Positions 2,302 through 58,142 of a DNA stretch of 64,000 nucleotides are shown one piece after another. The position numbers and the translations under genes were made by a program. The stretch covers positions 82,265-146,264 of the forward strand of contig JBHLRO010000003.1 of assembly GCA_048882505.1 (NCBI GenBank), read 5' to 3'. Source of the stretch: Candidatus Thorarchaeota archaeon (GTDB lineage: Archaea > Asgardarchaeota > Heimdallarchaeia > Hodarchaeales > Hodarchaeaceae). How positions within the stretch are numbered: position 1 is the first letter of the stretch; each line of letters opens with the position of its first letter. Below the pieces are notes generated by a model, which saw only the letters and a program-made list of their open reading frames with translations, did not search any database and was not told where the DNA came from.

Positions 2302-4077
2302 ATGGCCGATTCTAATTCTCGGAAAAAACAGCTCCTCGCAGCGTTAATCTTCCTTATTACGCTCATTTCTGGATTTTTTCTTGCTTTTATTACGAATACG
2401 GGGTATGGTTCCATCCAGATATCACGCGTTGGCATTTCAGAGGATTCTATAAACATCAACGGGATAATTTATCGTCCACTTACAGCCACAATTAATGATC
2501 CCAGACCCGCAGTGGTTTTAGCTCATGGTATTTCAGGTAGCCAGCAGATTATGAACGGAATTGCTCTAGAACTTGCACGACGAGGATTTGTAGCTCTGGC
2601 AATTGACCTAAAAGGACATGGAAATTCAGGAGGAAGTCTTTCATTTAGCGATCCAACATTAGGAACCCTTTCAGCCGTTAGATATCTTGAACTACAACCG
2701 TTTGTAAACGGATTGAGTGTTGGACTGATCGGACATTCATTGGGCGGAGTCGCAGTCCGAGCAACGGCCTTTGCACATAAGAATATATCAGCTGTAGTTA
2801 CTTTAGGTAGTCAATCTGCCTGGGCAGGGAATGAATCCGTTTATGGGATTATAAACACAACCTTTCCTCGGAATTTCCTTTTTGCAGTCGGTAGATATGA
2901 TGAGCTGTTTGGTGATTTGAATGAATTAAGAATAGCCCTTATGCCTGTGTTTGGAACTGAATCCCCCGTTATCGCGAATTCGATCATATATGGGGATTTT
3001 CGTTTTCAGAACGCCCGTAAACTCGTGATATCAGATACAATTCATCTATTGGAACCGGCAGATCCCTTTATAGTTTCAGAGATTTTGTCCTGGATGGATG
3101 CATCCCTCTGGGGAGGTCGAAATGCTATTATCCCTTATGACAACCAGATATTTCTTATTCGAGAACTAAGCTTACTGGCTGTTACGATTTCTCTTCTATT
3201 GTTGATTGTACCTTTATCTAACATACTTTATGGATCGGAAGCGTTAAAGAATTCGCAGCCATCGGCCTTTAATCCAAAGAAAGGTTTTGATGGCAAACTA
3301 GGGATTTTGGTGTCTGGATTAACCTACGGCGGGCTGAGCATTATTCTATTTATCCCCATGGTGATAATTGGATTCGTTATCAATATACCACCCCTAATAT
3401 TCGGAGCTTCGACTGCGTGGTGGCTCCTTGCGGTCGGTTTGACGGGATTAGCGATGGTCAAGATATTAAATCGGCTATCCTTGATTAATGCAAAGATAGA
3501 CCTAAAGCGTTTTTTTTCTCACCTTGAATCGGAATTTATGTCCAGGTATACTCTTCTATTAGTCTTGGGATATTTCGCAATCCTATATCTTCTGATCCTT
3601 TTTCTGGAGATATTGACAGCTCTTGATCTTCACTTTATAGTCCCTATTTTTAATGATCTTTTCCCTCCTTCAAGATTAATAATCTTCGTTCTTTTTATCC
3701 CATTTCTGCTCACATATTTTGTTACTGAAGCTATTTTGTTCCTTGAACTCTCCCCTGACGCCGAGTTTGGTAAAGAAATAACTGGTAGTTATAGGGGTGC
3801 AATTCGATTGCTGGCTATAAGAACAGCACCAATAATAGCTGTGTTAGCCTTTCAATATGTTCCGAAATTCCTGTTTAATGTTCTACCTATAAGTTGGGGA
3901 TTAAGCCCCTTACTTTTTCAGTTCTTTTGGGTCATGTTGCCATTGTTTGCTACCACCAGCCTCATTTCATGGTGGGGATTCCGAGTTACAGGACGAATCG
4001 GAGGTGGAGCCTTGCTCAATACTCTTTTACTCTCTTGGATGCTGGCTTCCCAATTCCCGTTTGGATCGTTTTTATAA
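2302..4077 (+). CDS. Membrane-anchored alpha/beta hydrolase with a C-terminal polytopic membrane domain
   Basis: An N-terminal TM helix is followed by a hydrolase core (VVLAHGISGS; GHSLGG nucleophile elbow). The C-terminal ~300 aa are strongly hydrophobic, with about 8 predicted TM segments. Confidence 0.6.
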   Translation: MADSNSRKKQLLAALIFLITLISGFFLAFITNTGYGSIQISRVGISEDSININGIIYRPLTATINDPRPAVVLAHGISGSQQIMNGIALELARRGFVALAIDLKGHGNSGGSLSFSDPTLGTLSAVRYLELQPFVNGLSVGLIGHSLGGVAVRATAFAHKNISAVVTLGSQSAWAGNESVYGIINTTFPRNFLFAVGRYDELFGDLNELRIALMPVFGTESPVIANSIIYGDFRFQNARKLVISDTIHLLEPADPFIVSEILSWMDASLWGGRNAIIPYDNQIFLIRELSLLAVTISLLLLIVPLSNILYGSEALKNSQPSAFNPKKGFDGKLGILVSGLTYGGLSIILFIPMVIIGFVINIPPLIFGASTAWWLLAVGLTGLAMVKILNRLSLINAKIDLKRFFSHLESEFMSRYTLLLVLGYFAILYLLILFLEILTALDLHFIVPIFNDLFPPSRLIIFVLFIPFLLTYFVTEAILFLELSPDAEFGKEITGSYRGAIRLLAIRTAPIIAVLAFQYVPKFLFNVLPISWGLSPLLFQFFWVMLPLFATTSLISWWGFRVTGRIGGGALLNTLLLSWMLASQFPFGSFL

Positions 4078-4104: not shown

Positions 4105-5298
4105 TTAAGCTATTGACCTTGCAAAGTGGAACAGTTTATCCTTGTGTAGAGGTGCTGCTTTTCTAACCTTGGAAAGGATCACATTAAGTTCATCCGCTTT
4201 GAGATCTCTTCGGAACGCTTGTATTTCTTCTTTTGAGACGCTTTCATGTTGAACCAAGCGAATGAGATCTCCTGATTTTGTCATTAATCGGCCAATATAA
4301 CCGTGTAAGACGGTTTCGTGCGTTTCCTCGGGAGCTATCTGTAATGTATGAATTAGATTATCTACGCTCGGTGTGTTTTTGAAATGGGAGTAAATTTTTC
4401 TATTGTCAACATCAACCCGCGTTATATTGGCTTTTTCATACCGCCTTAGAAAATCAACTTGAGAGGAGCAGATAATTAGATCCTTATCCTTAGGATCCAG
4501 AAAATTTGTCGCATAATCACGTTTTAATGACCGATGCGGCACCAGAAGCGCGATAGACTCAGTAACCTTATGAAGGATCTCCTTAATCTGACCGTAAAGG
4601 ATGACCGGTTCCTCTAATAGTAACGCATAGATAATCTGTCCTAACTGGTCAGGAAAATATTGAAATAAGAAATCTAAATCACCTGTCTCAAAGTTTTTGT
4701 CAAGTGATCTCTGAATACGCGCTTTAATATCGGTAAAAGTCTCGGATTGCGTTGAATTCCTTTCTATTTGTGTCAAGATAATATTCTTTAATCGAGGCTT
4801 TAATTGGTCGAATATTGTTGTATCGATAATTAGATCTTCCTTTCTATAAGCTGTGTACGAGTGTTCTACTGCTTCTTGAACTTTTAGAAGCGTACTATAC
4901 CATGCTTCGGAATTAACATTCTTTGTAATTGCAAGTACAGAAAAAACCGCTCCAGATCCAGCCATCAATAGTGTAGAACTCTTGGTTTGAAAGGAATCCA
5001 GCTCACCTATCTTTAAATCAGTGGACATACCTCGTAATGCAGCGAGAAACCCACCGAAGAGAACTTCGTCTATCTTCATAGAGTCTTCAAGGTTTACTGA
5101 ACAGATGGGTATTCCTGAGTTTTTTTCCACAACCCATAGGCCCATAAAGTCCTCAACGCTTGTCCTGTCACCGAGTGGCTCAGTTCTCAATACAGACCAC
5201 GATCCAAAGAAGTTTAAGACGAATGAATATGTGAAATGATTTAATCTCACTCCGATTTCAATCCTAAAAAAATTATCCAAACTGATGAATGAAGACAA
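4105..5298 (-). CDS. Roadblock/LC7 (longin-like) N-terminal domain protein with a C-terminal region resembling a cDENN core
   Basis: Residues ~50-125 (GLWVVEKNSGIPICSVNLED...DEVLFGGFLAALRGMSTDL...TLLMAGSGAVFSVLA) match the MglB/roadblock pattern. Downstream, IIYALLLEEPVILYGQ...ESIALLVPHRSL resembles the cDENN signature (ALLxExxvlfvSs...aLlyP). The domain calls are by eye only. Confidence 0.45.
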   Translation of the reverse strand: MSSFISLDNFFRIEIGVRLNHFTYSFVLNFFGSWSVLRTEPLGDRTSVEDFMGLWVVEKNSGIPICSVNLEDSMKIDEVLFGGFLAALRGMSTDLKIGELDSFQTKSSTLLMAGSGAVFSVLAITKNVNSEAWYSTLLKVQEAVEHSYTAYRKEDLIIDTTIFDQLKPRLKNIILTQIERNSTQSETFTDIKARIQRSLDKNFETGDLDFLFQYFPDQLGQIIYALLLEEPVILYGQIKEILHKVTESIALLVPHRSLKRDYATNFLDPKDKDLIICSSQVDFLRRYEKANITRVDVDNRKIYSHFKNTPSVDNLIHTLQIAPEETHETVLHGYIGRLMTKSGDLIRLVQHESVSKEEIQAFRRDLKADELNVILSKVRKAAPLHKDKLFHFARSIA

Positions 5299-5466: not shown

Positions 5467-6444
5467 TTACAGGAATTCGCTAAGCTTTACCCTTGTCAAT
5501 TCTCGGCGATATCGTGAAATGCGATCATTTGCGAGTGCACAATATTCCTCGCTAGTGTCAAAACCAATGAAGCGACGCCCTGTTTTTAATGCAGCAAGCG
5601 CCGTCTGTCCACTTCCCATGAATGGATCTAAAACGATATCATTTGAGTAGGAATATAATTGGATACAACGATACGGCAGTTCAACCGGAAATGGAGCAGG
5701 GTGGCCTACGCGTTTGGCGGATTCAGTGGGAAAGGTCCATACACTTTTCGTGTATGTTAGGAACTCGTCTCGTGAAATCGTACTATCTTTGTTATCTACT
5801 CTTGGTCGTTTAAATTTTCCCTTTGAAAAAACCAGTATGTACTCGTGAACATCACGGAGAGTGGGATTACTTGGAGATTGCCAACTACCCCACGCGGTAG
5901 AAGTACCAGCACTGGCTGATTTATCCCAAATAATTTCCCCTCGCATCAAGAACCCTATGCGATCCAAGATATCGATAATATATGTATGAAGGGGGATATA
6001 GGGCTTACGTCCGAGGTTGGCGATATTAATGCAGGCCCTACCTCCTGAAACTAATGATCTGTAAACCTCTTGAAATACAGTCTCTAGGAATGAGACATAG
6101 TCGGATAGAGAGAGATCTTGATCATAATCCTTACCGACTGAGTAAGGGGGACTAGTAACCGTGAGATGAATGCTGTTATCGGGAAGCTGGTTCATCTGTT
6201 CAGCTGATTGACAATAGATCTTGTCTAGCAGATCTGGATCAAGGGGTGTTTCGCGGTACGGCCCTGATTCTTCCGTTTTTATTCCTGAATATAGTTGTTT
6301 ATTATAGAATTCCGAAGAATCGTGACCTTCACGACCAGAAGTCCCAAATGAACTTGTCTTAGTTCGTCTTCGTCCCTTTTTTTGACTCTTATTGGACAAG
6401 GAATATCCGCAACAGAGGTTTGTTTTATTGGGCCAACTTCCCAC
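5467..6444 (-). CDS. Beta-class DNA methyltransferase (N4-cytosine or N6-adenine) with an N-terminal basic low-complexity extension
   Basis: Motif IV TSPPYSVGKDY precedes motif I DPFMGSGQTALAALKTGRRFIGFD, which is the beta-class order. The HPAPFPVELPYRCI block is also present. The first ~60 aa are rich in K/R/S/T. Confidence 0.8.
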   Translation of the reverse strand: MGSWPNKTNLCCGYSLSNKSQKKGRRRTKTSSFGTSGREGHDSSEFYNKQLYSGIKTEESGPYRETPLDPDLLDKIYCQSAEQMNQLPDNSIHLTVTSPPYSVGKDYDQDLSLSDYVSFLETVFQEVYRSLVSGGRACINIANLGRKPYIPLHTYIIDILDRIGFLMRGEIIWDKSASAGTSTAWGSWQSPSNPTLRDVHEYILVFSKGKFKRPRVDNKDSTISRDEFLTYTKSVWTFPTESAKRVGHPAPFPVELPYRCIQLYSYSNDIVLDPFMGSGQTALAALKTGRRFIGFDTSEEYCALANDRISRYRRELTRVKLSEFL

Positions 6445-7279: not shown

Positions 7280-8776
7280 ATGTTGACAAAGGAGAAAATC
7301 GCGGTCACTTCTGATATGAAGGAAATATTACTGCATCTGGAGAAGAGTGGTCCTACCACAGTGAACACAATGGCCTCTGAAATTGGGTGGTCAAGAGGAA
7401 AAATCGAATTTGTGACATCCCATCTGAAGAAACAAAGATTAGTTTCCACGAAAGTCACCCCTATAATTGAGGCAAAGATAACCCCCGAAGGAAAGCAAAC
7501 TCATAAAGACGGGCTTCCTGAGCATCAAATCCTGGAAAAACTTTCAGAAATCCCCTCCGGTCTTTCAATTGAAGCACTAGTTGATTCCCTTGAAATGTCC
7601 AAACGGGCAATTAATGCAGGAATAGGCCAGTTGCGTAGAGCGGGATTGGTAAAAATAGAGAAAGGATTAGTATTTCCTCAGAAAACTAAAGCTCGCGCAA
7701 ATCCTGAACTTGAACTGGCCCTTGATACCCTTGCGAAGAATCCGACCGCCTCGATTTCATCAGAATTTTTCGAAGAACTCGTACGCCGAAGATTTATAGA
7801 AGCAAAGGAACGCCAAGAAACCTCCCTTGCCCTGACCCCCTTGGGTAAGGAGTCTTTGGCAGATTTAGAGATCCAATCTCGGGTTACCAGGCTGTCTCCT
7901 GAACTAATTCGATCAGGAAGATGGCGTGACCTGACGTTAAAGAGCTATAACATGTCTGCAGCGCCCAAGTCCGTTGAAACAGGTAGTAAACACCCATATT
8001 TGTCGTTTTTGGAGGAGGTGAAAATAAAATTGGTTGGCCTTGGATTTACGGAAATGCGAGGCCCCCCTGTAGAAAGCGAGTTTTGGAATTTCGACGCCCT
8101 ATTCCAAGCACAAGACCATCCAGCTCGAGAATGGTCTGACGTGTACATAGTAAAGGCACCTTCCCATGGCCGATTACCTAAAGATAAGCAAGTCATTGAA
8201 AATGTAAAACGGGCTCATGAAACGGGAGAACCTGTTGGTTCCCGTGGGTGGCGGTATCGTTGGGATCCTTTGAAGTCTGCACGACTAGTACTGCGTCCAC
8301 AAGGCACCGCTGTAAGTGCAAGAACCTTATACAAGATGCCTATTCCCTCCAAATATTTCTGCATTGCCAGATGTTATCGTCCGGATTCAGTGGATGCAAC
8401 GCATCTGTCGGAATTCAATCAGCTTGAGGGAATCTCATGTGATCCTAGTATCTCACTTCGAGATCTTCTTGGGCTCCTCAAAACATTCGCTATTGAAATT
8501 GGGGGCGCCACCGAGGTTCGGTTTAAACCAGATTTTTACCCGTTTACATCTCCCTCCGTTGAACTAAGTGCCAAACATCCAACGTTAGGATACATCGAAT
8601 TTGGCGGTGCTGGGATTTTTCGTCCGGAGGTAACGGCCCCATTTGGAATCCGTGATCCCGTCATTGCATGGGGTTTGGGAATAGATCGGCTTTTTATGGT
8701 AAAAAAAGGAATTGATGACATTCGCGAACTATTCTCCCAGGATCTCCGGTGGCTTCGCACCGTTCCAATTACGTAG
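7280..8776 (+). CDS. pheS: Phenylalanine--tRNA ligase alpha subunit, archaeal/eukaryal type
   Basis: The class II core motifs are present (FQAQDHPAREWSDVYIV; CYRPD; GAGIFRPEV). A long N-terminal winged-helix region is typical of archaeal PheS, and the 498-aa length fits. Confidence 0.9.
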   Translation: MLTKEKIAVTSDMKEILLHLEKSGPTTVNTMASEIGWSRGKIEFVTSHLKKQRLVSTKVTPIIEAKITPEGKQTHKDGLPEHQILEKLSEIPSGLSIEALVDSLEMSKRAINAGIGQLRRAGLVKIEKGLVFPQKTKARANPELELALDTLAKNPTASISSEFFEELVRRRFIEAKERQETSLALTPLGKESLADLEIQSRVTRLSPELIRSGRWRDLTLKSYNMSAAPKSVETGSKHPYLSFLEEVKIKLVGLGFTEMRGPPVESEFWNFDALFQAQDHPAREWSDVYIVKAPSHGRLPKDKQVIENVKRAHETGEPVGSRGWRYRWDPLKSARLVLRPQGTAVSARTLYKMPIPSKYFCIARCYRPDSVDATHLSEFNQLEGISCDPSISLRDLLGLLKTFAIEIGGATEVRFKPDFYPFTSPSVELSAKHPTLGYIEFGGAGIFRPEVTAPFGIRDPVIAWGLGIDRLFMVKKGIDDIRELFSQDLRWLRTVPIT

Positions 8777-8788
8777 AAGGTAGGCAAG

Positions 8789-10504
8789 ATGGTTTCCTTT
8801 AAAATTGCATATAGTGATGTTGTGTCAATGCTCCAGCTATCCGAGACCACTCCAATGGAGGAGCTGGACACCCTTTTTAGCTATTCTAAATGTGAGATAG
8901 AGGAGTATGATCTCTCCGACGATTATATCAAAGTTGACTGCAAAACTTCCAATCGTCCTGATCTATGGGGTGTTGAAGGGCTCACTCGAGAACTTGCTGG
9001 GATTTTAGGTTCGGAAAAAGGCCTTCCGGAACTGACCACAAAACCAAGTGGGTTTGTTTTGGAGGTAGATCCATCAATAAAGGAGGTACGTCCTTATATC
9101 GCCTGTTCAATTGTACGCGGTATTTCATTTACAGATTTCTTGATAAAACAACTAATCCAACTCCAGGAAAAAATAGATTTTTCCTTCGGTCGTAAACGAC
9201 GTAAGTCATCTATTGGAATCTATAACATAAATCTAGTAGAGAGTCCTATTTTTTACGGGCTCACGCCACGTACAACGTCCTTTGTACCCCTTGGCTACCA
9301 TGATGAGATGAATCTTTCTGAAATTTTGCTCAATCATGAAAAAGGTATTGAATATGGCCATATACTACCTGAAGAAGGTGATTTGCCAATTCTTCGTGGC
9401 GCCAATGGTGTAATATTGTCCCTACCACCGATTATAAACAGTAACGACGTGGGCCGGGTAAATGAGGAAACTACCGATGTTTTAATCGAGGTTACAGGAA
9501 CAAACCTTGAAGTCGTTCAGACTGTGACCAATATTGTAACGCAAGCGCTCAGAGATCGTGGGGGTGAGGTCTATAGTGTTGAAGTCAAGTATCCTCGGAA
9601 TCACGGTGAAGCCCCCCCGGTAATGATCTCGCCAGCAACTGTTCCTTTCGAGATTGAGGTTGACCCAAAGGAAATAGCGAGATACTTGGGTCTGAATCTC
9701 AAAAAAAAGGATATTAAAGGCCTTCTCCTAAAACGTCGCCTTGATGTCGCAGAACGGGGGAAATTATTGGTCGTTAAATATCCTCCATACAGAGTGGACA
9801 TTTTGCATTGGGTTGATGTCGCTGAAGAGGTTGCCATCGCTTACGGATATATGCAAATCCCGCCAAAGGATCTGGGATTTACTACAATTGGTAGAATATC
9901 ACCACGCAGCTCAAGTGAGAATTATGCACGGGAAATTCTTAGTTGTTGCGCTCTTCAAGAAATCTTGAGCTTTACGTTAACTTCTCCCGACTACCTCTCC
10001 ATAAAAATGGGTCATGATGACTCTATTCTGAGCAAATGCATTGAGGTAGCAAATCCCGTGAGCCAAACTTATTCGATGATCCGAAATAGACTCCTTCCAG
10101 GCTTACTAAGCTTCTTATCACGAAATACACACGTCGAATATCCACAACAGTTGTTCGAAGTTGGTGAAACAGTGACCCGTACCAAAAACGGGATCGAAAC
10201 CATTACAAAAGCAGCCGTTGCCCTTGCAGGAGCAGAAATATCTTTTGAAGATTGTCATAGTATATTAGATACGTTTATGACTCGTCTCGGAGTAAAATAC
10301 TCGATAATTTCTACCAAGGACTCTGAATTCTTACCTGGTAGAGCTGCCAAGATCGTTGTTGATGGACAGCAGGCGGGAATAATTGGAGAGATTTCGCCAG
10401 ATCTCTTGGAAAATTGGCAGATATTCGTACCTACGGTGTCCTTTGAACTTGATCTATCCGTTTTTAAACCTCTCTCCCTTCCGCCGCTTTTCACATATGA
10501 ATAA
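8789..10504 (+). CDS. pheT: Phenylalanine--tRNA ligase beta subunit, archaeal type
   Basis: The 571-aa protein sits immediately downstream of pheS. It has B3/4- and B5-like regions and no bacterial anticodon-binding C-terminus, which is the archaeal architecture. Confidence 0.88.
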   Translation: MVSFKIAYSDVVSMLQLSETTPMEELDTLFSYSKCEIEEYDLSDDYIKVDCKTSNRPDLWGVEGLTRELAGILGSEKGLPELTTKPSGFVLEVDPSIKEVRPYIACSIVRGISFTDFLIKQLIQLQEKIDFSFGRKRRKSSIGIYNINLVESPIFYGLTPRTTSFVPLGYHDEMNLSEILLNHEKGIEYGHILPEEGDLPILRGANGVILSLPPIINSNDVGRVNEETTDVLIEVTGTNLEVVQTVTNIVTQALRDRGGEVYSVEVKYPRNHGEAPPVMISPATVPFEIEVDPKEIARYLGLNLKKKDIKGLLLKRRLDVAERGKLLVVKYPPYRVDILHWVDVAEEVAIAYGYMQIPPKDLGFTTIGRISPRSSSENYAREILSCCALQEILSFTLTSPDYLSIKMGHDDSILSKCIEVANPVSQTYSMIRNRLLPGLLSFLSRNTHVEYPQQLFEVGETVTRTKNGIETITKAAVALAGAEISFEDCHSILDTFMTRLGVKYSIISTKDSEFLPGRAAKIVVDGQQAGIIGEISPDLLENWQIFVPTVSFELDLSVFKPLSLPPLFTYE

Positions 10505-12863: not shown

Positions 12864-14051
12864 ATGAAAGAAGTAGTAATTGCAGATTATCTGCGTACAC
12901 CGTTTTCACGCTCACGACCAAATCAACCTGAACGAGATAAACTCAACTCATTTCGTATGGATCAAATGGCAGGCAATTTGATCAAAACTATGGTCGAACG
13001 AAAGGGTGTCAATCCAAAGGAGATCGGTGACGTATTAATAGGCTGTGCTTTACAAGTAGGAGAACAATGGCTATACGGAGGCCGCGCCATAGTGGCCATG
13101 GCAGAATTACCAGAGACAGTGACAGCTCAAAGTATCGATCGTCAATGTGGCTCTTCTATGAATACAATTCACACGGGAGCCATGCAGATAATGACGGGAT
13201 ATTCCGATATCGTGATTTCTGCGGGACTTGAACATATGACGCACGTTCCAATGGCCAATAATCCCCACATGGATCCTCCAATGTTCTTGGCAAGTGAAGA
13301 TAAGTATGATCATTATGATTTTGCAACCGGTTTTGTTATGGGATTTACCGCGGAAAAGCTCTTTGAAAGAGCCGCTAAAAAGTTTGGATTAACGCGAGAG
13401 GATCTCGACCGGTATAGTCTTGAATCCCATGAGTTCGCAGCGAAAGCGCAAGACGAGGGATTCTTTAAAGACGAAATTTTGCCAATAAAAGTGAACGGGG
13501 AGATGTTCGACTTAGATGCCAGCGTCAGACGAGGGGGAACCATGGACGCAATGCAAAGCCTTAGTCCCGTATTTGATTTCGAAGGGGTGGTAACGGCGGG
13601 AAACTCCTCTCCATTAAATGCGGGGGCCTCAGCCATGATTCTCATGTCAAAAGAAAAGGCTAAGGAGTATGGAATTGAGCCTCTTGCAACCATAAAATCT
13701 ATGGGTTGGGCAGGCGTCAATCCTGGAATTATGGGACATGGACCTGTGCCTGCAAGTCAAAAAGCAGTAGAAAATGCGGGCTTACGAATCTCGGATATAG
13801 ACTATTGGGAAATCAATGAAGCATTTGCGGTTGTAGCTCTTAACGCCATCAAAGAATTGAACCTAGATAGAAACAGGGTTAACGTGAAAGGAGGAGCTAT
13901 TGCCTTAGGTCATCCTCTCGGTGCTACGGGAACACGTATTGTGGGAACTTTAGCTCGGATTCTTCATTGGGAGGATGGTCAATATGGCCTGTCGACTGCA
14001 TGCATCGGTGGAGGACAAGGAATAGCTACGGTTATCGAAAAAGGTAGCTGA
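12864..14051 (+). CDS. Acetyl-CoA acetyltransferase / 3-ketoacyl-CoA thiolase
   Basis: Thiolase signatures are present: DRQCGSS (active Cys), NEAFAV, GGAIALGHPLGATG and CIGGGQG. The protein is 395 aa. Confidence 0.85.
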   Translation: MKEVVIADYLRTPFSRSRPNQPERDKLNSFRMDQMAGNLIKTMVERKGVNPKEIGDVLIGCALQVGEQWLYGGRAIVAMAELPETVTAQSIDRQCGSSMNTIHTGAMQIMTGYSDIVISAGLEHMTHVPMANNPHMDPPMFLASEDKYDHYDFATGFVMGFTAEKLFERAAKKFGLTREDLDRYSLESHEFAAKAQDEGFFKDEILPIKVNGEMFDLDASVRRGGTMDAMQSLSPVFDFEGVVTAGNSSPLNAGASAMILMSKEKAKEYGIEPLATIKSMGWAGVNPGIMGHGPVPASQKAVENAGLRISDIDYWEINEAFAVVALNAIKELNLDRNRVNVKGGAIALGHPLGATGTRIVGTLARILHWEDGQYGLSTACIGGGQGIATVIEKGS

Positions 14052-14099
14052 TAATTTTCTTGGTTTGCGCGTGTAGGAAAAATCAAAGTACAATTAGAG

Positions 14100-16085
14100 G
14101 TGAAAAAAATGAATGTTGACGATATTAAGACTGTAGCAGTTGTTGGCGCGGGTGATATGGGTCACGGAATCGGCCAGGCCGCGCTAATGGCGGGCTTTAA
14201 AGTCAATTTATATGATATCGCAGACGAATTCGTTGAAAAAGGGAAATCACGAATTGATTGGAGTCTCAACAAGTTTGAGGAAAAAGGAAGAATCGCAAAA
14301 GGCGATCGAGACAAATTTATGGGAAACCTAAAAATAACTATAGATCTGGAAGAGGCGGTCAGTGATGCAGAATTGGTTATCGAAGCAGCGCCTGAAAATC
14401 TCGAGCTTAAGAAGAAAATATTCGGAAATTTAGATAAGTTCGCGCCAAAGAGTGCCATTCTAGCTTCTAATACTTCCAATATGAGTATCAATGAACTCGG
14501 AGCAGCCACGAGCCGACCTGAGAAGGTGGTTGGGATGCACTATTTCAATCCCGTAGTTCTAATGAATTTAATCGAAATAACTCGTGGTGAGAAGACTTCT
14601 GATGAAACGGTCGCTATACTTGTTGACGTTACAAAGAAGATGAAGAAAACTTCTATTATTTGCAAGAAGGATAGTCCCGGATTTATTGTAAATCGAATTG
14701 GAGCTCCAACCAGTCTATACCTGCAATTGTTGATTGATCGTGGCGAATACACCGTTGAACAGATAGATTCTGCGGCAAACCAGATGGGTTTACCCATGGG
14801 AGTTTTCCTGATGCTCGATAATTCAGGAGTAGACATTGGATATCATTCCATGAAATACTGGGCGGAACGCCTCCATCCGGATTATAAACCAACACCCACT
14901 CTAGAAAAAATGATTGAGGAAAACAAACTAGGGAAAAAAACAGGAGAAGGGTATTACAAGTGGCCTGAGGTTGGAAGGCCGACGATCGACACATCCGTTG
15001 AGTCAGATTTTGATCTAATGAATCTAATTAAGATCCAAATCAATGAAGCATCAAAAATTCTGGAAGAAGGACTTTGCTCTGCGGACGAAATAGATACGGG
15101 GATGAAACTGGGAATGAGTGCTTTTGGTCCTATAGAAATGGCCGAAGGACAGGATTTCAAAGAGTTGACAGAGTTCTTGGACGGTTTGGCGGAAAAATTT
15201 GGTACTGAAGTCTTTAAGGCTCATAAATATATTCGTGAAGGAACTTTGTTGGATATTGCAAAGGGTACGACGGCCAAACAAGAGAAGAAAGAAGATGAAT
15301 TTGAAACCATCCGTCTCGATCGGGATCCAGACAACTTTGTTACGACGATCTGGTTTGCTAGACCTTACCCAAACTTGATTAATGAACAAGTTTTAGATGA
15401 TCTATCCGCAGCCCTGGATTTACTTTGGAACGATAATAAAACACGAGTTATCGTGATTCGTGGTGAAAATCGTGTCTTTTCTGCAGGATTTGAACTTGAT
15501 ATTTCGAAATTCCTTGACGCAGACTCGTGGTTTGTCGTTAACATGGTTAGAAAAGGGCAATATACCTTTAAGAAATTGAGAGATATCCCGAAGGTCGTCA
15601 TTGCTGCCATGCAGAAATATTGTTTTGCAGGCGGTTTAGAGCTAGCTATGAGTTGTGATCTAAGAATTGCTTCTGAGAAAACCAAGATGGGATTAACAGA
15701 GGTCGGCCTTGGAATTATCCCAGGATGGGGAGGCACCCAGAACCTACGCCGACACATTGGCTTGGGTCGAACGATGGAAATGATATTAACTGCGAAACGA
15801 ATAGATGCAGAAGAGGCAGAAGAAATCGGACTCATTAATAAGGAAGTCGACGAGGAAGATTTCGAAGAATATGTCGATAAATATGCGAAAAAAGTGGCCA
15901 AATTGAGTGCCCCTATTTCAGTTGGGATAGCAAAGCGGTTAGTTAACCAAGCAGCAGAAGTTCCGATCGATATAGGACTTCAAATGGAATCACTAGGGGC
16001 TGGAATCGCATTCTTGACCGAAGATGCGAAAGAGGGAGTTATGTCAATGTTCCAGAAAAAGGAACCCGAGTTCCAAGGAAAATAA
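14100..16085 (+). CDS. Fused 3-hydroxyacyl-CoA dehydrogenase (N-terminal) / enoyl-CoA hydratase (C-terminal)
   Basis: An N-terminal Rossmann motif VAVVGAGDMGHGIGQ sits in a 3HCDH-like domain. The C-terminal crotonase fold carries FSAGFEL and AAMQKYCFAGGLELAMSCDLRIAS. The domain order is reversed relative to bacterial FadB. Confidence 0.85.
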   Translation: MKKMNVDDIKTVAVVGAGDMGHGIGQAALMAGFKVNLYDIADEFVEKGKSRIDWSLNKFEEKGRIAKGDRDKFMGNLKITIDLEEAVSDAELVIEAAPENLELKKKIFGNLDKFAPKSAILASNTSNMSINELGAATSRPEKVVGMHYFNPVVLMNLIEITRGEKTSDETVAILVDVTKKMKKTSIICKKDSPGFIVNRIGAPTSLYLQLLIDRGEYTVEQIDSAANQMGLPMGVFLMLDNSGVDIGYHSMKYWAERLHPDYKPTPTLEKMIEENKLGKKTGEGYYKWPEVGRPTIDTSVESDFDLMNLIKIQINEASKILEEGLCSADEIDTGMKLGMSAFGPIEMAEGQDFKELTEFLDGLAEKFGTEVFKAHKYIREGTLLDIAKGTTAKQEKKEDEFETIRLDRDPDNFVTTIWFARPYPNLINEQVLDDLSAALDLLWNDNKTRVIVIRGENRVFSAGFELDISKFLDADSWFVVNMVRKGQYTFKKLRDIPKVVIAAMQKYCFAGGLELAMSCDLRIASEKTKMGLTEVGLGIIPGWGGTQNLRRHIGLGRTMEMILTAKRIDAEEAEEIGLINKEVDEEDFEEYVDKYAKKVAKLSAPISVGIAKRLVNQAAEVPIDIGLQMESLGAGIAFLTEDAKEGVMSMFQKKEPEFQGK

Positions 16086-16107: not shown

Positions 16108-18702
16108 TTATGTCCGAGTGCTCTGGATAAACGATCTTGTTTTTTTCATTTCTTTCTCCCACTTTTTTCTTTCAGAACGTAGCTGAAAAATGTCTACATC
16201 TTTATAGATCAAATCTTCCTTTTTAGGGGGAATGTTATATTCAGTTCTCTCCTTTTCAGGAGTATAGATGAAAGAATTACCAAACTCGGCAATATTGGCG
16301 AAGAAACAGTAGGCATAAATCGATCTTCGGGCATCGAAATGCGCCGCTTTGAAATCAGCGGTAACTGGTGTAAAAGCTGGATTAAAAATAATGTCTACTG
16401 GTGGATCGAAGTTTTTCAACTCTGCTCTGAAATCCAGATCAAGAAAATCGCGACAGATTAAGATTGCCATTCTTCCGTACTCTGTGTTGCATACAATGGT
16501 GGTTCTGGGAAATTTATCAACGGATATGCCCTCCTTGATCTTTTTTCCAGCAATATAAATGATTGCGGGGTGATGCTTCTCTTGCTCCCACAGCACACCT
16601 TTTGGGCCAAACGCAATACTTACATTTCGATTTGTCGTTTGATCATGAAAAGACCCAGGAATTATGTACATTCCATACATCTGAGCAGATTTTGAGATAT
16701 CCTCTCTTAACAACTTGCAATTAAGGTCGATGATAAGCTCGGGGAATAGCAAAATGTTGATCCCCTCCGAGACAGCCCTCTGTATTTTATTTTTGATGGA
16801 ATTTCTGATGAGTTCAACTTTTTCTTTCCGTATATTAAATAAACCAGGAATTTTTGAATAAAAGAGTTCGCTTACAATATCATCAGTTTCTGAGATTCCT
16901 ATTTGCGCTATTCCGATTCGACATTTTTGTTTCTGAGTTCTAGCATGAGTGTGATATAGATCCTTATAGATCAGTCTGAATCTTGTTACCGTTTTAAACT
17001 TATTTTCTAAGACATCATTTATGGCGTTCGAAATGTATTCACGGAGGTTTAAAAGCTCAATCCTTTCCTGTAATGTCGAATTACTGATAAATAGTTCTTT
17101 CCATTCATCTAATTGACCTATAAGTTCTTCTTGCTGAATTAATAATTTCGAATGTATCAGTCCCAATCCTTTATCTTCAGCGATCGCAAGCGCTTTTTCA
17201 AGTAATTTTTTCGATAGATCAGATTTGCCTTCAATTAATGCAAGTCTTGCTTGAAGGGAATATAAGCTGACCAAGGTTGTAATTGATCTTTGTTTGTTTG
17301 CTACATTGGAAATCTGATCTAATAATTGTTGTATATCTAATATAATTGCCTCTTCTCCGGAATATTTCAGTTCATCTAATAATAATTCACAGAGATTTAC
17401 TTTGATCATAAACTCAATTTCATAGTCAAATCTGTCTTCCTTGATTTCTTGCAGAATCTGTTGAGCTTGAAATTTATAGACTGCTCTTTTTTTCTCTTTT
17501 AAAACGAGTGCCTGAGCTAACTTTTTTACAACATCTAACCATGGCCACCTCTCTACGTATTCATCTAGCTTCTGCTGTGACACGTCAATTTTTTGTTCAT
17601 TGTGGAGTTCCACATATGCCATGATTAAGTATAAATGAAGGATGGCCAGCTCAAAATCCAAGAAAGTATTTCTGGATTTGCATATTGATTCGTGAACATC
17701 GATTGCTTTGTTGAAATATTCAATGGCCTTCTCTAGTTCACCTTGGTGATAATGAACAGCGCCCAAATACCGAAAGGTAACACAATAACCATGGGGAACA
17801 TCTCGAGATGAAGATGGAGAATAATCCTTTAGAGCTTTATCATAATACTGAATTCCTTTCCTGAAATTTCCTTTTCCTTGATGGACTGAACCCATAAGAG
17901 TTGAAACTTCAGAAAGACCTATTTCATGTTCCAAATCATCAAAGATCTCAAGACTTTCTTCAGCACATCGTAATGCTGTGTCTAATTCCCCTTTATAATA
18001 GTGGATGTAACCTAGGGAATAATTGGACCAAGCGATATACTTGGTATTTCCTATAGCTTTACTGATTTCCAATTGTCTCTGTATATAGTCTTGCGCTTCG
18101 TCTAAACTTCCTCTGGCCCTCAATATCCAGCCTATATTATTTAATTGATAATAAATACCTTGTTTATGATTGATTTCCCTAAACAAGTTCAAACTTCTCT
18201 TGAAAAAATCTAAGGCCTTATCGAATTCACCAATAGAAATTTGAAACCCCCCCTTAAATGCCAATAATTCTCCTTCCCATTCCCGTATTTTTTGCCTGTC
18301 AGAATCATTCATCCTCGATAAAATAATGTCACACAATTCGACTTCTTCTGTAATCTCAGAAAATCTCCTTAATTTGTACAAGGTTTGTATTTTCGCATTT
18401 CGTGCTCCAAATTCTTGAACAAGATTAAGTTGTTCCAGGCGGGAATTGAGAATTTTTTCTAAAATCGATAATGCACCATCGTAATCACGTCGTGTCCGAA
18501 ATATGAGGCTCTTAAGTACTTCTCCTTCAATTCGATCCTTCTTCTCGAGTGTTTCAATTCTTGAGAGAGCATCATCTAGTTTCTCATCTTGGATTAATTT
18601 CTGAATTTCTTCCAAGCTCATAAGGATCGCCTCACCTAAAAAGAATCGACCGTAAATAAACAATATTCCTATAGTAACCAAAAACATCTCAACCACTGCC
18701 AA
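16108..18702 (-). CDS. Membrane-anchored TPR-repeat protein fused to a C-terminal carbon-nitrogen hydrolase (nitrilase-superfamily) domain (paralog A)
   Basis: An N-terminal TM helix (MAVVEMFLVTIGILFIYGRFFLG) is followed by about 500 aa of TPR-like helical repeats. The C-terminal ~290 aa carry the CN-hydrolase motifs: RIGIAQIGIS, ILLFPEL (Glu), WEQEKHHPA (Lys, compare yRKxHLf) and AILICRDF (Cys). This domain is about 75% identical to the C-terminus of the 31001-34792 protein. Confidence 0.6.
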   Translation of the reverse strand: MAVVEMFLVTIGILFIYGRFFLGEAILMSLEEIQKLIQDEKLDDALSRIETLEKKDRIEGEVLKSLIFRTRRDYDGALSILEKILNSRLEQLNLVQEFGARNAKIQTLYKLRRFSEITEEVELCDIILSRMNDSDRQKIREWEGELLAFKGGFQISIGEFDKALDFFKRSLNLFREINHKQGIYYQLNNIGWILRARGSLDEAQDYIQRQLEISKAIGNTKYIAWSNYSLGYIHYYKGELDTALRCAEESLEIFDDLEHEIGLSEVSTLMGSVHQGKGNFRKGIQYYDKALKDYSPSSSRDVPHGYCVTFRYLGAVHYHQGELEKAIEYFNKAIDVHESICKSRNTFLDFELAILHLYLIMAYVELHNEQKIDVSQQKLDEYVERWPWLDVVKKLAQALVLKEKKRAVYKFQAQQILQEIKEDRFDYEIEFMIKVNLCELLLDELKYSGEEAIILDIQQLLDQISNVANKQRSITTLVSLYSLQARLALIEGKSDLSKKLLEKALAIAEDKGLGLIHSKLLIQQEELIGQLDEWKELFISNSTLQERIELLNLREYISNAINDVLENKFKTVTRFRLIYKDLYHTHARTQKQKCRIGIAQIGISETDDIVSELFYSKIPGLFNIRKEKVELIRNSIKNKIQRAVSEGINILLFPELIIDLNCKLLREDISKSAQMYGMYIIPGSFHDQTTNRNVSIAFGPKGVLWEQEKHHPAIIYIAGKKIKEGISVDKFPRTTIVCNTEYGRMAILICRDFLDLDFRAELKNFDPPVDIIFNPAFTPVTADFKAAHFDARRSIYAYCFFANIAEFGNSFIYTPEKERTEYNIPPKKEDLIYKDVDIFQLRSERKKWEKEMKKTRSFIQSTRT

Positions 18703-31000: not shown

Positions 31001-34000
31001 TTGATGGAGAAAGCAAGGGGTGAGGAGAAGAACCTCAATTGGATTAAAGCCGCCATTCTTTATGGCCAAGCGAAAGAAGAGTATTTGAAGGATGAAGAGG
31101 TGGAATTAGCAGCTAACGCCTGTTACAGACAAGGATATACTTATACCAGATGTGCGGAAACGGCAGGAGGGGCCAATGAATTTGAAGAACATTTTCAGTC
31201 TTCTATTGAATCATATAATGAAGCTGCAGATCTTTTTTCTTGGATAGATGCTTTGCCAGAAAAATGGGCATGCTTGGCAGAATCTGCGTTTTCTGCTGCT
31301 TTTATTAGTAAATCAATTCCTGAAATGCTAGAAGCATTTGAGAATGCCTACGAACTTTTCTTAGAGGCAAATAAAGGGTATTCAATAAGGAACGATACCA
31401 AACACTATATTCGGACTTATGTTCGTGCTGCAATGACGCTCTCAAATCTTATCCCTTACAGAAACAACCCAGATGAAATTAATCGTGTACGTCAAGAAGG
31501 TAGAGAGATAATCGACAAAATTTGGAACATTGCAATAGAACAGAGAGATGCCTTTTCACTTTCACAATCTCTCTTTGCTGACCATCTTTTGAAGTATTAT
31601 GAGTGGTTTATAGGATTATCAAAAAAGGACCATTATTGGAAAAGAAGCGAGGAAGAAACTATCAACAAACTTGAAGAAGCGATTCCAATCATTGAGGCGA
31701 ATGATAATCCTACGTACCTTGAAATGAGCTATCACGTCGCAGGTTTGACTAACAATACATATGGATTTCAGTTTGTAGAAAACGATAAAGAACAGAACAA
31801 ATTTGCGGAACTAGGGTTCAGTTATTTTAGGAGGGCCGAATCACTGAATAAAAAAACCAAGAATAAATTGCTTAATACCTTAACAACAGCCTGGACCGAT
31901 TGGTGGGCATTATTCTGGGGTAGAGTCGAGTATCTACAAAATCGAATTCAGGACGATCTCGCAGCTTTAGAAAACAATGCAAAAATAATGTATCAGTCCT
32001 TTACTAACTTCAATTTTTATGCAAATTTCTTACCTACGTTTGCTTATGCGAATTTTGCTCAGAGGAGCTTTTTTTCTAGTTCTCAAAGACGTCAGTTTGC
32101 GGAAATGGCAAATAAATATGCCTTAGAATGTTTACGGATAATTCCCTCTTCCCCAATATCTTTATGGCCCCTACAAATGCAAACGTGGGCATATTCCCAG
32201 TTGACTATATTGGCTTCAGATGCACCAGAGCGGCAAATGAATGCCCGAATTATGCTTCAGTACGCGGAACGTGGGGAAAATTTCGCGAAAAACTATGAAG
32301 GAGGATTTGCCAGAGCCTCGGCTTTCTCTTCTCTTTATCGGTGTTACAAAACTTTGGCAGAAATTTCTAAAGATGAGGAATATCGAATTGAATACCTCAC
32401 TAAGGCAATAGATGCAATGGAGAAATATGCGGATTACGCTCTTGAATCACGGGTGGGAGTTATTAATGCACAATTTCGAATAGGACTTTTATATGGGGAA
32501 CTGTATGAAATAACAGGTCAATCAAACCTTTTAAAGAAGTTAAGGGACCTATTTCAAAGCATATTAAATGACTGTAACGAGAGGGGATATTTTTCTTACT
32601 CAGCTGCCGCTTCAGAGAACTTAGCTCATATAGAGGATAAACTGGGTAATTTCAATCTTTCTACGGATTATTATGTTCGAGCCAGAGAAAAACATACCCA
32701 ATCTTTAGAAAAAATTGAATATAGACCATTAAGGGAAAAAATCGTCGAGAAAATCAACTATACTAATGCATGGGCATTAATTGAGAGTGCTAAAACGCAT
32801 CATAAAAGAGAAGATCAACAAAAAGCGGAAGCGGAATATTTAACGGCCTCTAAAATTCTCATAAATCTGCCTGACCATTCCTATGAAGCACCATACTTCG
32901 AAGCTCTAGCTTTGCAAGAAAAAGCCGAATATCTAAGTTCGAAAGAAAACTATCAGAATTCTCAATCAGAGTTTCTAAAAGGTCAAATGGCTTTTACAAA
33001 TGCGTTGAATGCTTTTAATCAAGCTATAAAGGATATTGACAACAACAAAGAGCGAGATCGCATTAACAAGATGATTTCCCTTACCAATCTTGGGATTAGT
33101 TACTGTTCTGCCCGTTCCTCTATTGATAATGCCCAAATTCTCTGGAAAAAAGGAGATCTTATCCCAGCTGCAGAGCAAATGAAATCAGCGGCTTCCCTGT
33201 TCAAGGAAACGCCAATAAGCTCTGAAACTAGGAGAGAACAACGGAAATTTAATGCCTTTAATTATTTATGTCAGGCATGGGAGAATATGATAACTGCAGA
33301 GAAGTACGCGGATTCTGAAAAGTACCAAAGTGCCTCAGGATTATTTAAAAGCGCTAACGACCTGCTACTAGACAGTAGGATAAAATTCTTGGCTTCAGGC
33401 AATGCATTTTTTTGTCAAAGTTTAGCAAATGGATGTAAATTTGACGAATCAAATGATCTCAAGATTAAAGAAGAATTGTTCATTGAAATCAAGTCCCTCC
33501 TAAGAAACGCCGCCATACTATATCAAAAAGGAGATTTCATTACCGCTTCAGGTTGGGTTTTAGCTACGTCCACTTACTTCGATGCCACCTGGCACCTAAT
33601 TAAGGCAGATAAAGAAATCGAATTGGATAAGAAACAAACTCTATTGAGGATAGGATCGAGCTACCTAAAGTCTGCAGCTGGACTTTTCAGAAAACACGGT
33701 TTCGTTGAAAAAGAGAATGAAGTTCAGACTCGTATCTCTATGGTTGAAAAAGAAGAGCAAATCTTGGTTACCGCGATTAACACTATCAAAGAACCTTCAA
33801 TCTCTAGAAGCACAAAAAGCATGAGTTCTTCAACCAATCTTGGAGTTTCAAGCTTGCCGTCAGGGATGAGCGAAATCCGAAAGTTTACAGAAGAAGCGAG
33901 AAGGGTTTCAATCCTAAGAGAATACCAATTAATCTATGAAGACAATCTTCCAGATTTCCCAAGGAGTCAGAAACGGCATTTTAAAGTAGGCATTGCCCAA

Positions 34001-34792
34001 ATTGGGATTTCAAATAGTGGAGATTTCCTGAATGAATTCTATGACAGAAAAAATAACGGATTAATTAGACTAAAACAAAATAAAATTGAATTCATGAGAT
34101 CTAAAGTAAATGATATGATTACAAGGGCACACGCGAACGAAGTCGATATTCTCATCTTCCCTGAACTCTCTATTGATCTAAATTATGAAATTCTCTATAA
34201 TGAAATTTTGAATCTTTCGAAATCGTACGGAATGTACATAATTCCTGGATCGTATCACGATGAAAGTACAAAATATAATCAGAGTGTAGTTATTGGTCCT
34301 GATGGTATCCTATGGAGACAAAATAAGCACATACCTGCCGTAATTCACCTAGATGGAAGAAAAGTGACCGAGGAGATCGATGTTGGTGGCCCAGTTCATA
34401 AGACATTGATCTTTAACACGGAGTACGGCCGTATTGCAATAGCAATCTGCAGAGATTTCTTAGATATGGATTTGAGGGTAGAACTCAAGAACTCGAAACC
34501 CCCTGTAGATCTAATAATTAATCCGGCATTCACTCCAGTAACGGAGGATTTCAAAGCTGCTCATTTTGATGCTCGAAGATCAATTTATGCATACTGTTTC
34601 TTTGCCAATGTTGCAGAGTTTGGAAATTCTCTTATATTTACCCCTGAAAAGGAACGAAAAGAAAGAATCATGCCACCTAAAAAAGAGGGAATTATTATCA
34701 AAGAAGTAGACTTATTTACACTTCGTTCAGAAAGAAAAAGATGGGAAAATGAACGAAGAAAGACAAAATCATTTATTCAAAGTACACGGTAA
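31001..34792 (+). CDS. Large cytoplasmic TPR/helical-repeat protein fused to a C-terminal carbon-nitrogen hydrolase (nitrilase-superfamily) domain (paralog B)
   Basis: About 970 aa of helical repeats precede the CN-hydrolase motifs: FKVGIAQIGIS, ILIFPEL, RQNKHIPA and AIAICRDF. The C-terminal ~290 aa (about 33930-34792) are near-identical in motif order to the 16108-18702 protein. Confidence 0.6.
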   Translation: MMEKARGEEKNLNWIKAAILYGQAKEEYLKDEEVELAANACYRQGYTYTRCAETAGGANEFEEHFQSSIESYNEAADLFSWIDALPEKWACLAESAFSAAFISKSIPEMLEAFENAYELFLEANKGYSIRNDTKHYIRTYVRAAMTLSNLIPYRNNPDEINRVRQEGREIIDKIWNIAIEQRDAFSLSQSLFADHLLKYYEWFIGLSKKDHYWKRSEEETINKLEEAIPIIEANDNPTYLEMSYHVAGLTNNTYGFQFVENDKEQNKFAELGFSYFRRAESLNKKTKNKLLNTLTTAWTDWWALFWGRVEYLQNRIQDDLAALENNAKIMYQSFTNFNFYANFLPTFAYANFAQRSFFSSSQRRQFAEMANKYALECLRIIPSSPISLWPLQMQTWAYSQLTILASDAPERQMNARIMLQYAERGENFAKNYEGGFARASAFSSLYRCYKTLAEISKDEEYRIEYLTKAIDAMEKYADYALESRVGVINAQFRIGLLYGELYEITGQSNLLKKLRDLFQSILNDCNERGYFSYSAAASENLAHIEDKLGNFNLSTDYYVRAREKHTQSLEKIEYRPLREKIVEKINYTNAWALIESAKTHHKREDQQKAEAEYLTASKILINLPDHSYEAPYFEALALQEKAEYLSSKENYQNSQSEFLKGQMAFTNALNAFNQAIKDIDNNKERDRINKMISLTNLGISYCSARSSIDNAQILWKKGDLIPAAEQMKSAASLFKETPISSETRREQRKFNAFNYLCQAWENMITAEKYADSEKYQSASGLFKSANDLLLDSRIKFLASGNAFFCQSLANGCKFDESNDLKIKEELFIEIKSLLRNAAILYQKGDFITASGWVLATSTYFDATWHLIKADKEIELDKKQTLLRIGSSYLKSAAGLFRKHGFVEKENEVQTRISMVEKEEQILVTAINTIKEPSISRSTKSMSSSTNLGVSSLPSGMSEIRKFTEEARRVSILREYQLIYEDNLPDFPRSQKRHFKVGIAQIGISNSGDFLNEFYDRKNNGLIRLKQNKIEFMRSKVNDMITRAHANEVDILIFPELSIDLNYEILYNEILNLSKSYGMYIIPGSYHDESTKYNQSVVIGPDGILWRQNKHIPAVIHLDGRKVTEEIDVGGPVHKTLIFNTEYGRIAIAICRDFLDMDLRVELKNSKPPVDLIINPAFTPVTEDFKAAHFDARRSIYAYCFFANVAEFGNSLIFTPEKERKERIMPPKKEGIIIKEVDLFTLRSERKRWENERRKTKSFIQSTR

Positions 34793-57790: not shown

Positions 57791-58142
57791 TTATACTCAA
57801 AATCCCTTCAATTCTCATCTTATATCCAGATTAAAATTCACAAGTAACTGTGATTCTTAGATGTCGGAAAATCATCCTTCTTTTCTAACAAAAACAGCCC
57901 GATTTTAATACCATCTTCTACGAATAGCGACCGACCCCTGTGTAAATATCTTTCACATTAAATGTGTTTTAATTTGATTTCATCAACGGTAAATCCATTA
58001 CCAGCAAAATGCCAATTCTTAAGTCCAGATTTTAAGAACCTCTTTGAAATACACAGAATTTTCCTTTATTCTACTGAAAGCCTTATAAGAAACTAGGCAT
58101 ATTGTGATATCGCTTAACCAGAAATAGCTTATGAGCGAAAAA

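Follow-up and report, generated by a model that had tools for sequence, protein, structure and literature searches.

A predicted longin-DENN protein and probable small-GTPase regulator encoded by a Heimdall/Hod-group Asgard archaeon

A 64,000-nucleotide stretch of contig JBHLRO010000003.1 (the window), from an Asgard archaeon labelled Candidatus Thorarchaeota, carries on its minus strand, at 4105..5190, a gene for a longin-DENN protein of 361 amino acids (aa). The longin-DENN architecture is real, a conclusion that comes mainly from predicted structure, and we think it likely that the protein is a cytoplasmic, two-module member of the superfamily that regulates a Ras/Rab-like small GTPase or serves as its platform. 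We read it as a GTPase regulator because of its fold, the gene neighbourhoods of its orthologues, and the fusions of its N-terminal module (N-module) to GTPases. In eukaryotes, longin-DENN proteins are core regulators of the GTPases (Rab, Arf and Rag) that act in membrane traffic and nutrient signalling. A longin or roadblock domain followed by a DENN domain was the architecture proposed in an earlier, sequence-only reading of the window, and it is borne out by the topology of AlphaFold2 models and by their Foldseek matches. All parts of the gene described below lie on the minus strand.

AlphaFold2 was run twice on independent alignments, the first of 23 close homologues and the second of 79 sequences that took in distant relatives of either half of the protein. 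The predicted local distance difference test score (pLDDT) was 73 for the first model and 86 for the second, with 93-97 across residues 170-350, and both models have the same topology: N-terminal module, disordered linker, five-stranded α/β core and helical tail. The low-confidence linker (4690..4746, residues ~149-167; pLDDT <50 at 151-165) is variable in the family alignment (A1). After it comes a predicted cDENN-like α/β core (4381..4689, residues ~168-270), delimited by the high pLDDT, by Foldseek and by a sub-threshold match to Pfam DENN, in which AlphaFold2 places five short strands (196-199, 224-226, 238-241, 257-260 and 265-267) and helices at 172-178, 183-191, 203-214 and 248-253. Within the core lies a signature stretch, IIYALLLEEPVILYGQIKEILHKVTESIALLVPHRSL (4525..4635, residues 186-222), comprising a strand, a helix and then a conserved proline, Pro218, which is near-invariant among 66 family members. 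The remainder of the chain (4108..4380, residues ~271-361) is a predicted dDENN-like, all-helical part (helices 274-285, 288-314, 320-327, 332-345 and 347-357) containing invariant DELN and KLFxFAR motifs.

When the models were compared with the PDB by Foldseek, the best 14 matches were all longin-DENN proteins (C9orf72, SMCR8, DENND1A, DENND1B, FLCN and FNIP2), with E-values of 3e-7 to 5e-4 and probabilities of 0.98-1.00, and with both domains covered in the same order; DENND10 was additionally among the matches of the first model. The isolated DENN domain of FLCN (3v42) gave a template modelling (TM) score of 0.63-0.68 on the target. The model shows what the sequence-only reading had expected of a structure prediction, a DENN-type α/β core, together with the longin-type order of the N-terminal domain, a superposable cDENN core and a helical dDENN region, the structural features by which we judged membership of the DENN superfamily. 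Among known structures, FLCN/FNIP and C9orf72/SMCR8 (6NZD, 6ULG, 8DHB, 6LT0, 7MGE, 3V42) share the longin-then-DENN order and are the best structural matches; the target is of comparable size, at ~360 aa, and lacks the eukaryotic inserts. The Rab35 guanine nucleotide exchange factor (GEF) modules of DENND1A and DENND1B (3TW8, 6EKK) share the tripartite uDENN(longin)-cDENN-dDENN arrangement and match over the full length (Foldseek E 3e-7 to 2e-6), but their sequence identity to the target is ~13% and the target falls below the Pfam DENN threshold.

The N-module (4747..5148, residues ~15-148), delimited by AlphaFold2, Foldseek, profile comparison and alignment A4, is a predicted longin/roadblock-superfamily domain with elements β15-22, β28-32, α42-58, β64-68, β72-78, β82-89, α95-118 and α125-148. 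An SG[IL]P loop joins β1 and β2, and the β4-β5 hairpin has no arginine. Roadblock domains have an N-terminal helix and the order α-β-β-α-β-β-β(-α), whereas longin domains lack that helix and have an extra C-terminal one instead (PMC10933270). In the models any N-terminal helix is at most 3 residues long, and two helices stand at the C-terminal end; because of these two features we call the predicted topology longin-type, in the order β-β-α-β-β-β-α-α along the chain. Foldseek matches to longin domains (CopZ, σ-adaptins, Ykt6 and VAMP7) have TM scores of 0.5-0.64 on the target.

We searched 1.8 billion cluster representatives exhaustively with a profile and obtained 108 families at E≤1e-3, whose members are mostly of 340-380 aa and matched over their full length. 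The named homologues are all from Asgard archaea (with the labels Heimdall, Hod, Prometheo, Thor, Odin and Hermod), and the family is Asgard-only; all are annotated ‘hypothetical protein’, with no precomputed Pfam domains. Full-length homologues of the target number 23, at 33-80% identity. The N-module type also occurs without a DENN domain, both as free-standing proteins of 155-171 aa that are 30-45% identical to target residues 1-150, and, recognisable as SGLP...FSGFxxAIR...GxLxSFxT, fused N-terminally to two GTPases, P0111 (Gtr1/RagA type) and P0114 (Ras type). As an aside, the stand-alone proteins (P0029, P0031, P0034, P0046, P0048 and P0062; fragments P0085 and P0092) have a lysine-rich linker and then an invariant C-terminal KLE[DE][ST]GLW, a motif that looks like a short docking peptide and is missing from the fused form in the window.

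We searched for orthologues beside small GTPase genes, as the sequence-only reading had suggested, and found them at loci L007, L008 (at ~4 kb) and L011. At L007 the next genes after the orthologue, on its strand, are a Robl_LC7 gene (132 aa, E=1e-12; 153-nt gap) and a Ras-family GTPase gene (208 aa, E=2.5e-28; 30-nt gap), with a major facilitator superfamily (MFS) transporter gene beyond them. At L008/L002 the Robl-GTPase-MFS block lies ~4 kb downstream of the orthologue, past two inserted genes on the opposite strand, and at L011 a Ras-family GTPase gene (E=2e-37) adjoins the orthologue convergently. Locus L020 (CP070665.1, Heimdallarchaeota bin76) holds, at 8001-8117, only the last 39 codons, 67% identical to residues 321-359, directly upstream of a Robl_LC7 - GTPase - MFS - MtmB block, which indicates decay of the gene at its ancestral position. 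An operon that combines genes for a DENN protein, a Rab-like GTPase and a member of the Roadblock superfamily has been described in most Asgard archaea (Liu et al., bioRxiv 10.1101/2020.10.19.343400). The orthologue loci resemble it in placing the gene beside a Robl_LC7 and a Ras/Rab-like GTPase gene (at L007; at L008 4 kb off; at L011 the GTPase only; at L020 as a remnant), whereas in the window and at the closely related locus L006 the gene lies beside a methyltransferase and an α/β-hydrolase instead. The operon linkage to Roadblock and GTPase is lost in this window.

In the mechanism we propose, the N-terminal longin/roadblock-type module would offer a surface for dimerisation and GTPase docking, and the DENN module a second surface, for GTPase binding or dimerisation. 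The likely partners would be the Roadblock/LC7 protein and the Ras-family GTPase encoded beside orthologues in other Heimdall/Hod-group genomes, with the protein itself, whose longin module has neither the GP motif nor a β4-β5 hairpin arginine of folliculin-type GAP subunits, acting as a GEF-type or a non-catalytic subunit. Any GTPase binding, any GEF or GTPase-activating protein (GAP) activity, and the identity of the partner in this genome are things that we infer. The label ‘GEF’ is likewise an assumption: the fold would suit a GEF (like DENND1), a GAP subunit (like FLCN or SMCR8) or a scaffold or non-catalytic partner.

Several observations weigh against this account of the protein as a longin-DENN GTPase regulator. 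The assignment of the fold rests on a predicted structure in which it is uncertain how the two domains are placed relative to each other; whole-chain TM scores are only 0.3-0.4, with a root-mean-square deviation >20 Å (Foldseek), and the predicted TM score of the model is 0.57. We attribute the low whole-chain TM to an inter-domain orientation that differs or, as the predicted TM score suggests, is undefined. The target scores 14.9-15.2 bits against Pfam DENN (E=0.02-0.03), under the gathering score of 23.4 bits, and no sequence profile (PF02141 DENN, PF16692 Folliculin_C, PF15019 C9orf72-like) reaches its curated threshold. Using hhalign, we compared a 66-member family profile with the single human FLCN and C9orf72 sequences (which agree with PDB chains 6ulg_L over 578/579 residues and 6lt0_C over 481/481). 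The signature stretch, here IIYALLLEEPVILYGQ...ALLVPH, aligns with FLCN 364-422 with P=0.004 but a probability of only 8%, and the C-terminal helical part aligns in position, not significantly, with C9orf72 397-465 (probability 0.9%); the topology of these alignments is sensible, but being non-significant they are not counted as evidence of homology. In the window and at L006 there is no GTPase or Roadblock gene within 10 kb, the window's only GTPase gene being 53 kb off, and a search of the 64-kb window for further paralogues, Roadblock genes or Ras GTPases like those neighbouring the orthologues found none. Evidence from context is sparse because Asgard GTPase genes generally lie outside the operons of their regulators (PMC10933270). 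Finally, the literature on Asgard DENN proteins covered here reports no activity for any of them.

There is a second way to fit the family to GTPase regulation, which we regard as unlikely: the protein could be the non-catalytic half of a folliculin-FNIP-like heterodimer, providing the second longin and the second DENN domain needed to dimerise and to dock the GTPase, while a paralogue with a GP motif supplies the GAP chemistry. The close members of the family form two subfamilies, subfamily 1 (the target's, 12 members) and subfamily 2 (11 members). The GP motif is specific to the GAP longins FLCN, SMCR8, C9orf72 and NPRL2 and is also found in Asgard longins (PMC12290439). The N-module of subfamily 1 is of the SG[IL]P type, and that of subfamily 2 carries SVFDxKKGP, that is, FDxxxGP with the GP motif. 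Between the subfamilies the DENN halves are on average 53% identical, as high a value as at the deepest splits within subfamily 1, but the N-modules only 14%. The difference indicates a swap of N-modules at the linker, the junction between the 14% and 53% sides of the alignment.

As to which subunit the target might be, all 12 members of subfamily 1, like the target, have S-G-[IL]-P, with hairpins such as AGSGA or SSDD that contain no Arg/Lys. The combination of GP motif and β4-β5 arginine finger by which an FLCN-type GAP is recognised is absent from the target, whose longin has SGIP in place of the GP motif and no arginine where FLCN Arg164 sits in the β4-β5 hairpin; for that reason its sequence argues against a folliculin-type arginine-finger GAP subunit. 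In this respect the target longin is closer to a non-catalytic partner of the FNIP or NPRL3 kind than to FLCN, and no Rag-type partner is evident. To our knowledge, every eukaryotic longin GAP complex (6NZD, 6LT0, 7MGE) joins a catalytic chain to a non-catalytic one in a heterodimer, which also favours such a pairing here. The shared DENN domains and unrelated N-modules of the two subfamilies, and the presence of FDxxxGP in subfamily 2 where the target has G-I-P and no hairpin arginine, are what it would predict. In addition, both subfamilies occur in 3/3 genomes where this could be judged: CP070695.1 (L010+L012), which is a complete chromosome, CAZALJ01 (L007+L013) and JBHLMN01 (L008+L014). 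However, the two genes are never adjacent, the hairpin arginine is not invariant within subfamily 2, and several metagenome-assembled genomes (MAGs) have subfamily 2 without subfamily 1, although MAG incompleteness limits the meaning of such absences.

A fuller version of this scheme is, in our view, unlikely: that Heimdall/Hod-group Asgard archaea already have a heterodimeric longin-DENN GAP design, in which GP-motif subfamily 2 and domain-swapped subfamily 1 would pair via their DENN domains and, with Roadblock, control a Ras/Rab-like GTPase. The longin of subfamily 1 would then have been replaced by the roadblock-like module that is also found free-standing and fused to Rag/Ras GTPases. If true, the heterodimer and Roadblock system would be a direct archaeal precursor of FLCN-FNIP/Ragulator-type signalling; the current picture is unchanged unless the heterodimer or GAP hypothesis holds experimentally.

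We note separately that at the subfamily-2 loci L003, L004, L005, L012-L015 and L017 a gene block is conserved over ~15 kb, in the order phosphoglucomutase, F420 oxidoreductase, N6-MTase/Eco57I-type enzyme, class III aminotransferase, M20 peptidase, the subfamily-2 gene, three uncharacterised genes (~286, 180 and 191 aa; no Pfam match) and an amino-acid permease. At L016, also of subfamily 2, the neighbours are a LysE transporter and a Ras GTPase. The repeated proximity of subfamily-2 genes to amino-acid transporters recalls folliculin/Lst7 biology, and may be mere conserved synteny.

It is also conceivable, though we think it improbable, that the N-module acts alone as an MglB/Roadblock-type GAP or GEF platform and that the DENN half is an appendage for oligomerisation or localisation. 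The sequence-only reading had described the N-terminal third as an MglB/roadblock pattern. As a description of the sequence this is fair: the N-module profile (A4) weakly matches the Robl_LC7 protein 7f8f (E=0.005), with the SG[IL]P loop paired with the roadblock ‘EGLP’ hairpin, and Roadblock/LC7 proteins and MglB (PF03259; 7F8F, 6HJM, 9JUE) have in common with it the ‘G-[LI]-P’ loop of the β-hairpin and the pattern of the central helix. Lower-ranked single-domain Foldseek matches to the N-module include roadblock/LC7, MglB, MglC, Asgard Roadblock3 and LAMTOR4/5 (TM 0.4-0.6 for Roadblock/LC7 and MglB), and the module exists both on its own and fused to GTPases. The order of secondary structure elements, however, is longin-type by the definitions given above (PMC10933270), with two C-terminal helices in place of the Roadblock N-terminal helix, and Pfam Robl_LC7 (PF03259) has no match in the target. 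The DENN half, moreover, is the better conserved of the two: nearly all of the 32 invariant columns of the family alignment are C-terminal.

We consider it very unlikely that the likeness to DENN arose artefactually, whether in structure prediction or because Foldseek rewarded a generic α/β fold. The sub-threshold sequence profiles and the low whole-chain TM would be compatible with it, but 14/14 of the best matches belong to one superfamily and cover both domains in the same order, and neither the TM of the isolated FLCN DENN domain nor the pLDDT of 93-97 is suggestive of a spurious match. Furthermore, independent weak sequence matches (DENN, C9orf72-like, Folliculin_C and SMCR8) all fall on topologically equivalent segments. 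IIYALLLEEPVILYGQ...ALLVPH aligns to the SMCR8 DENN segment AIYSLLSGRTLVVLGED...AIFVPS with E 0.43 using a 23-sequence profile and 1.7e-3 using the 66-sequence profile, and IIYALLLEEPVILYGQIKEILHKVTESIALLVPHRSL is aligned against the SMCR8 DENN segment AIYSLLSGRTLVVLGEDEAIVRKLVTALAIFVPS; both SMCR8 and FLCN align with the core motif of the target, hhhxLLxxxxVhhxGxxxxxVxxxhxxLxxhhP. Among 104 relatives, 3-4 have sub-threshold matches to Folliculin_C or C9orf72-like, and a few have such matches to the Longin and Fuz_longin_1 profiles; the best E-values of family members are 6.8e-5 for C9orf72-like, 1.3e-4 for Folliculin and 1.3e-3 for Folliculin_C. The cDENN-like core claimed in the sequence-only reading is upheld by AlphaFold2 and Foldseek and not by the motif on which it had been based. 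By itself the motif resemblance is not above chance, and it becomes significant only via structure prediction.

As had been reported, the gene lies just downstream of a DNA methyltransferase gene on the same strand (5467-6444; N6/N4, type II; PF01555 E=4e-49; PADLOC MTase_II E=8e-127), which is 277 bp upstream of it. On the other side, a gene for a membrane-anchored α/β-hydrolase (2302-4077) converges on it. The methyltransferase is not a functional partner, because the two occur side by side in the window and the near-identical L006 only. Despite the shared strand and the short gap, we reject as extremely unlikely the idea that the protein is a restriction endonuclease or other defence partner of this enzyme: its fold is longin-DENN, PADLOC and NCBIfam have no match to it at all, neither these nor Pfam gives a nuclease match, no defence family matched, nor did a restriction-enzyme family of the sort that the sequence-only reading had named as contrary evidence, and the pairing is absent from six other subfamily-1 loci.

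Longin-DENN proteins in Asgard archaea are already known (2020/2021). Asgard DENN proteins and FLCN-like longin+DENN architectures were described by Liu et al. (bioRxiv 10.1101/2020.10.19.343400; Nature 2021), and their presence is now cited as common knowledge. The sequence-only reading held that a prokaryotic example would bear on the origin of eukaryotic GTPase regulators; such proteins were in Liu et al. 2020, and the part they play in the case for a GTPase-regulator toolkit older than eukaryotes is already published. Our target is a further, unannotated example, sharing with those systems the Asgard origin, the longin-type plus DENN organisation and the expansion of paralogous families in the Heimdall group. 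What is new here is an unannotated family of the Heimdall/Hod group, which we relate to the proteins of Liu et al. by their description and not by asCOG membership; a high-confidence model of a compact protein (361 aa) whose family current annotation pipelines miss; a clear N-module swap, as the alignments suggest, between paralogues with a common DENN domain; and candidate partners (Roadblock, Ras-like GTPase and GP-motif paralogue).

The extent of the gene requires some comment. The open reading frame (ORF) that had been reported on the minus strand at 4105..5298 is present and contains both DEVLFGGFLAALRGMSTDL...TLLMAGSGAVFSVLA and IIYALLLEEPVILYGQ...ESIALLVPHRSL; it is a single long ORF, of 397 aa if counted from the first TTG (5298). 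A coding start at 5298, however, is not supported. At L006, whose protein is 91% identical, the codon corresponding to TTG 5190 is ATG and that corresponding to TTG 5298 is TCG, and orthologues are 343-361 aa long; these observations make TTG 5190 the most likely true start. This yields the coding sequence 4105..5190 (361 aa, with the stop codon at 4105-4107), an exact match to P0001, MFW9854313.1, which NCBI lists as ‘hypothetical protein ACFFFG_04605’ (361 aa) from a Candidatus Thorarchaeota MAG; a relative >90% identical to the target protein carries the database label Heimdallarchaeota. We rejected ATG 5145 (346 aa; GAGG 5 nt upstream) as an alternative primary start, given that orthologues P0004-P0012 have Leu/Ile there and L006 has its ATG at the position of 5190. 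The gene is real and under strong purifying selection: comparison with L006 gives dS 0.65, dN 0.047 and dN/dS 0.07.

The upstream part of the ORF (5191..5298) is probably untranslated, a leader or promoter: it has 83% nucleotide identity to L006, with changes that are not codon-patterned. Within it, an A/T-rich element, TTTGGATAATTTTTTTAGGAT (~5261-5281, minus strand), 71-91 nt before the start codon, is perfectly kept between the window and L006, in an intergenic sequence that is otherwise more diverged. We infer that it may be an archaeal promoter element (B recognition element/TATA box).

Elsewhere in the window, a plus-strand gene at 58118-59104 encodes a small GTPase of the Arf family (Pfam Arf E=1e-25), which has the P-loop LFGLERSGKTT and is extended at its C-terminus by ~150 aa. 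Before the P-loop no ATG/GTG/TTG lies in frame; ATGs (58131, 58143) occur only in the +1 frame, which reads MSEKMGNQNWQGQFGFYYLV*, with the stop at 58191-58193, and whose ‘MGN...’ start resembles an Arf N-terminus. Joining the two frames needs a -1 shift or a 1-nt indel; an assembly error, a pseudogene or a frameshift could each account for this. Two further proteins, of 864 aa (16108-18702, minus strand) and 1263 aa (31001-34792, plus strand), have a carbon-nitrogen hydrolase domain at their C-terminal ends; the former also has a long array of tetratricopeptide repeats, and the N-terminal ~1000 aa of the latter are without a Pfam match. Reading of the translations alone suggests that the plus-strand genes at 7280-8776 (498 aa) and 8789-10504 (571 aa) encode the α and β subunits of an archaeal-type phenylalanyl-tRNA synthetase. 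A thiolase and a fused 3-hydroxyacyl-CoA dehydrogenase/enoyl-CoA hydratase, of β-oxidation type and supported by Pfam, are encoded at 12864-16085 (plus strand). Together with the synthetase-like genes, they form a housekeeping context consistent with an archaeal chromosome.

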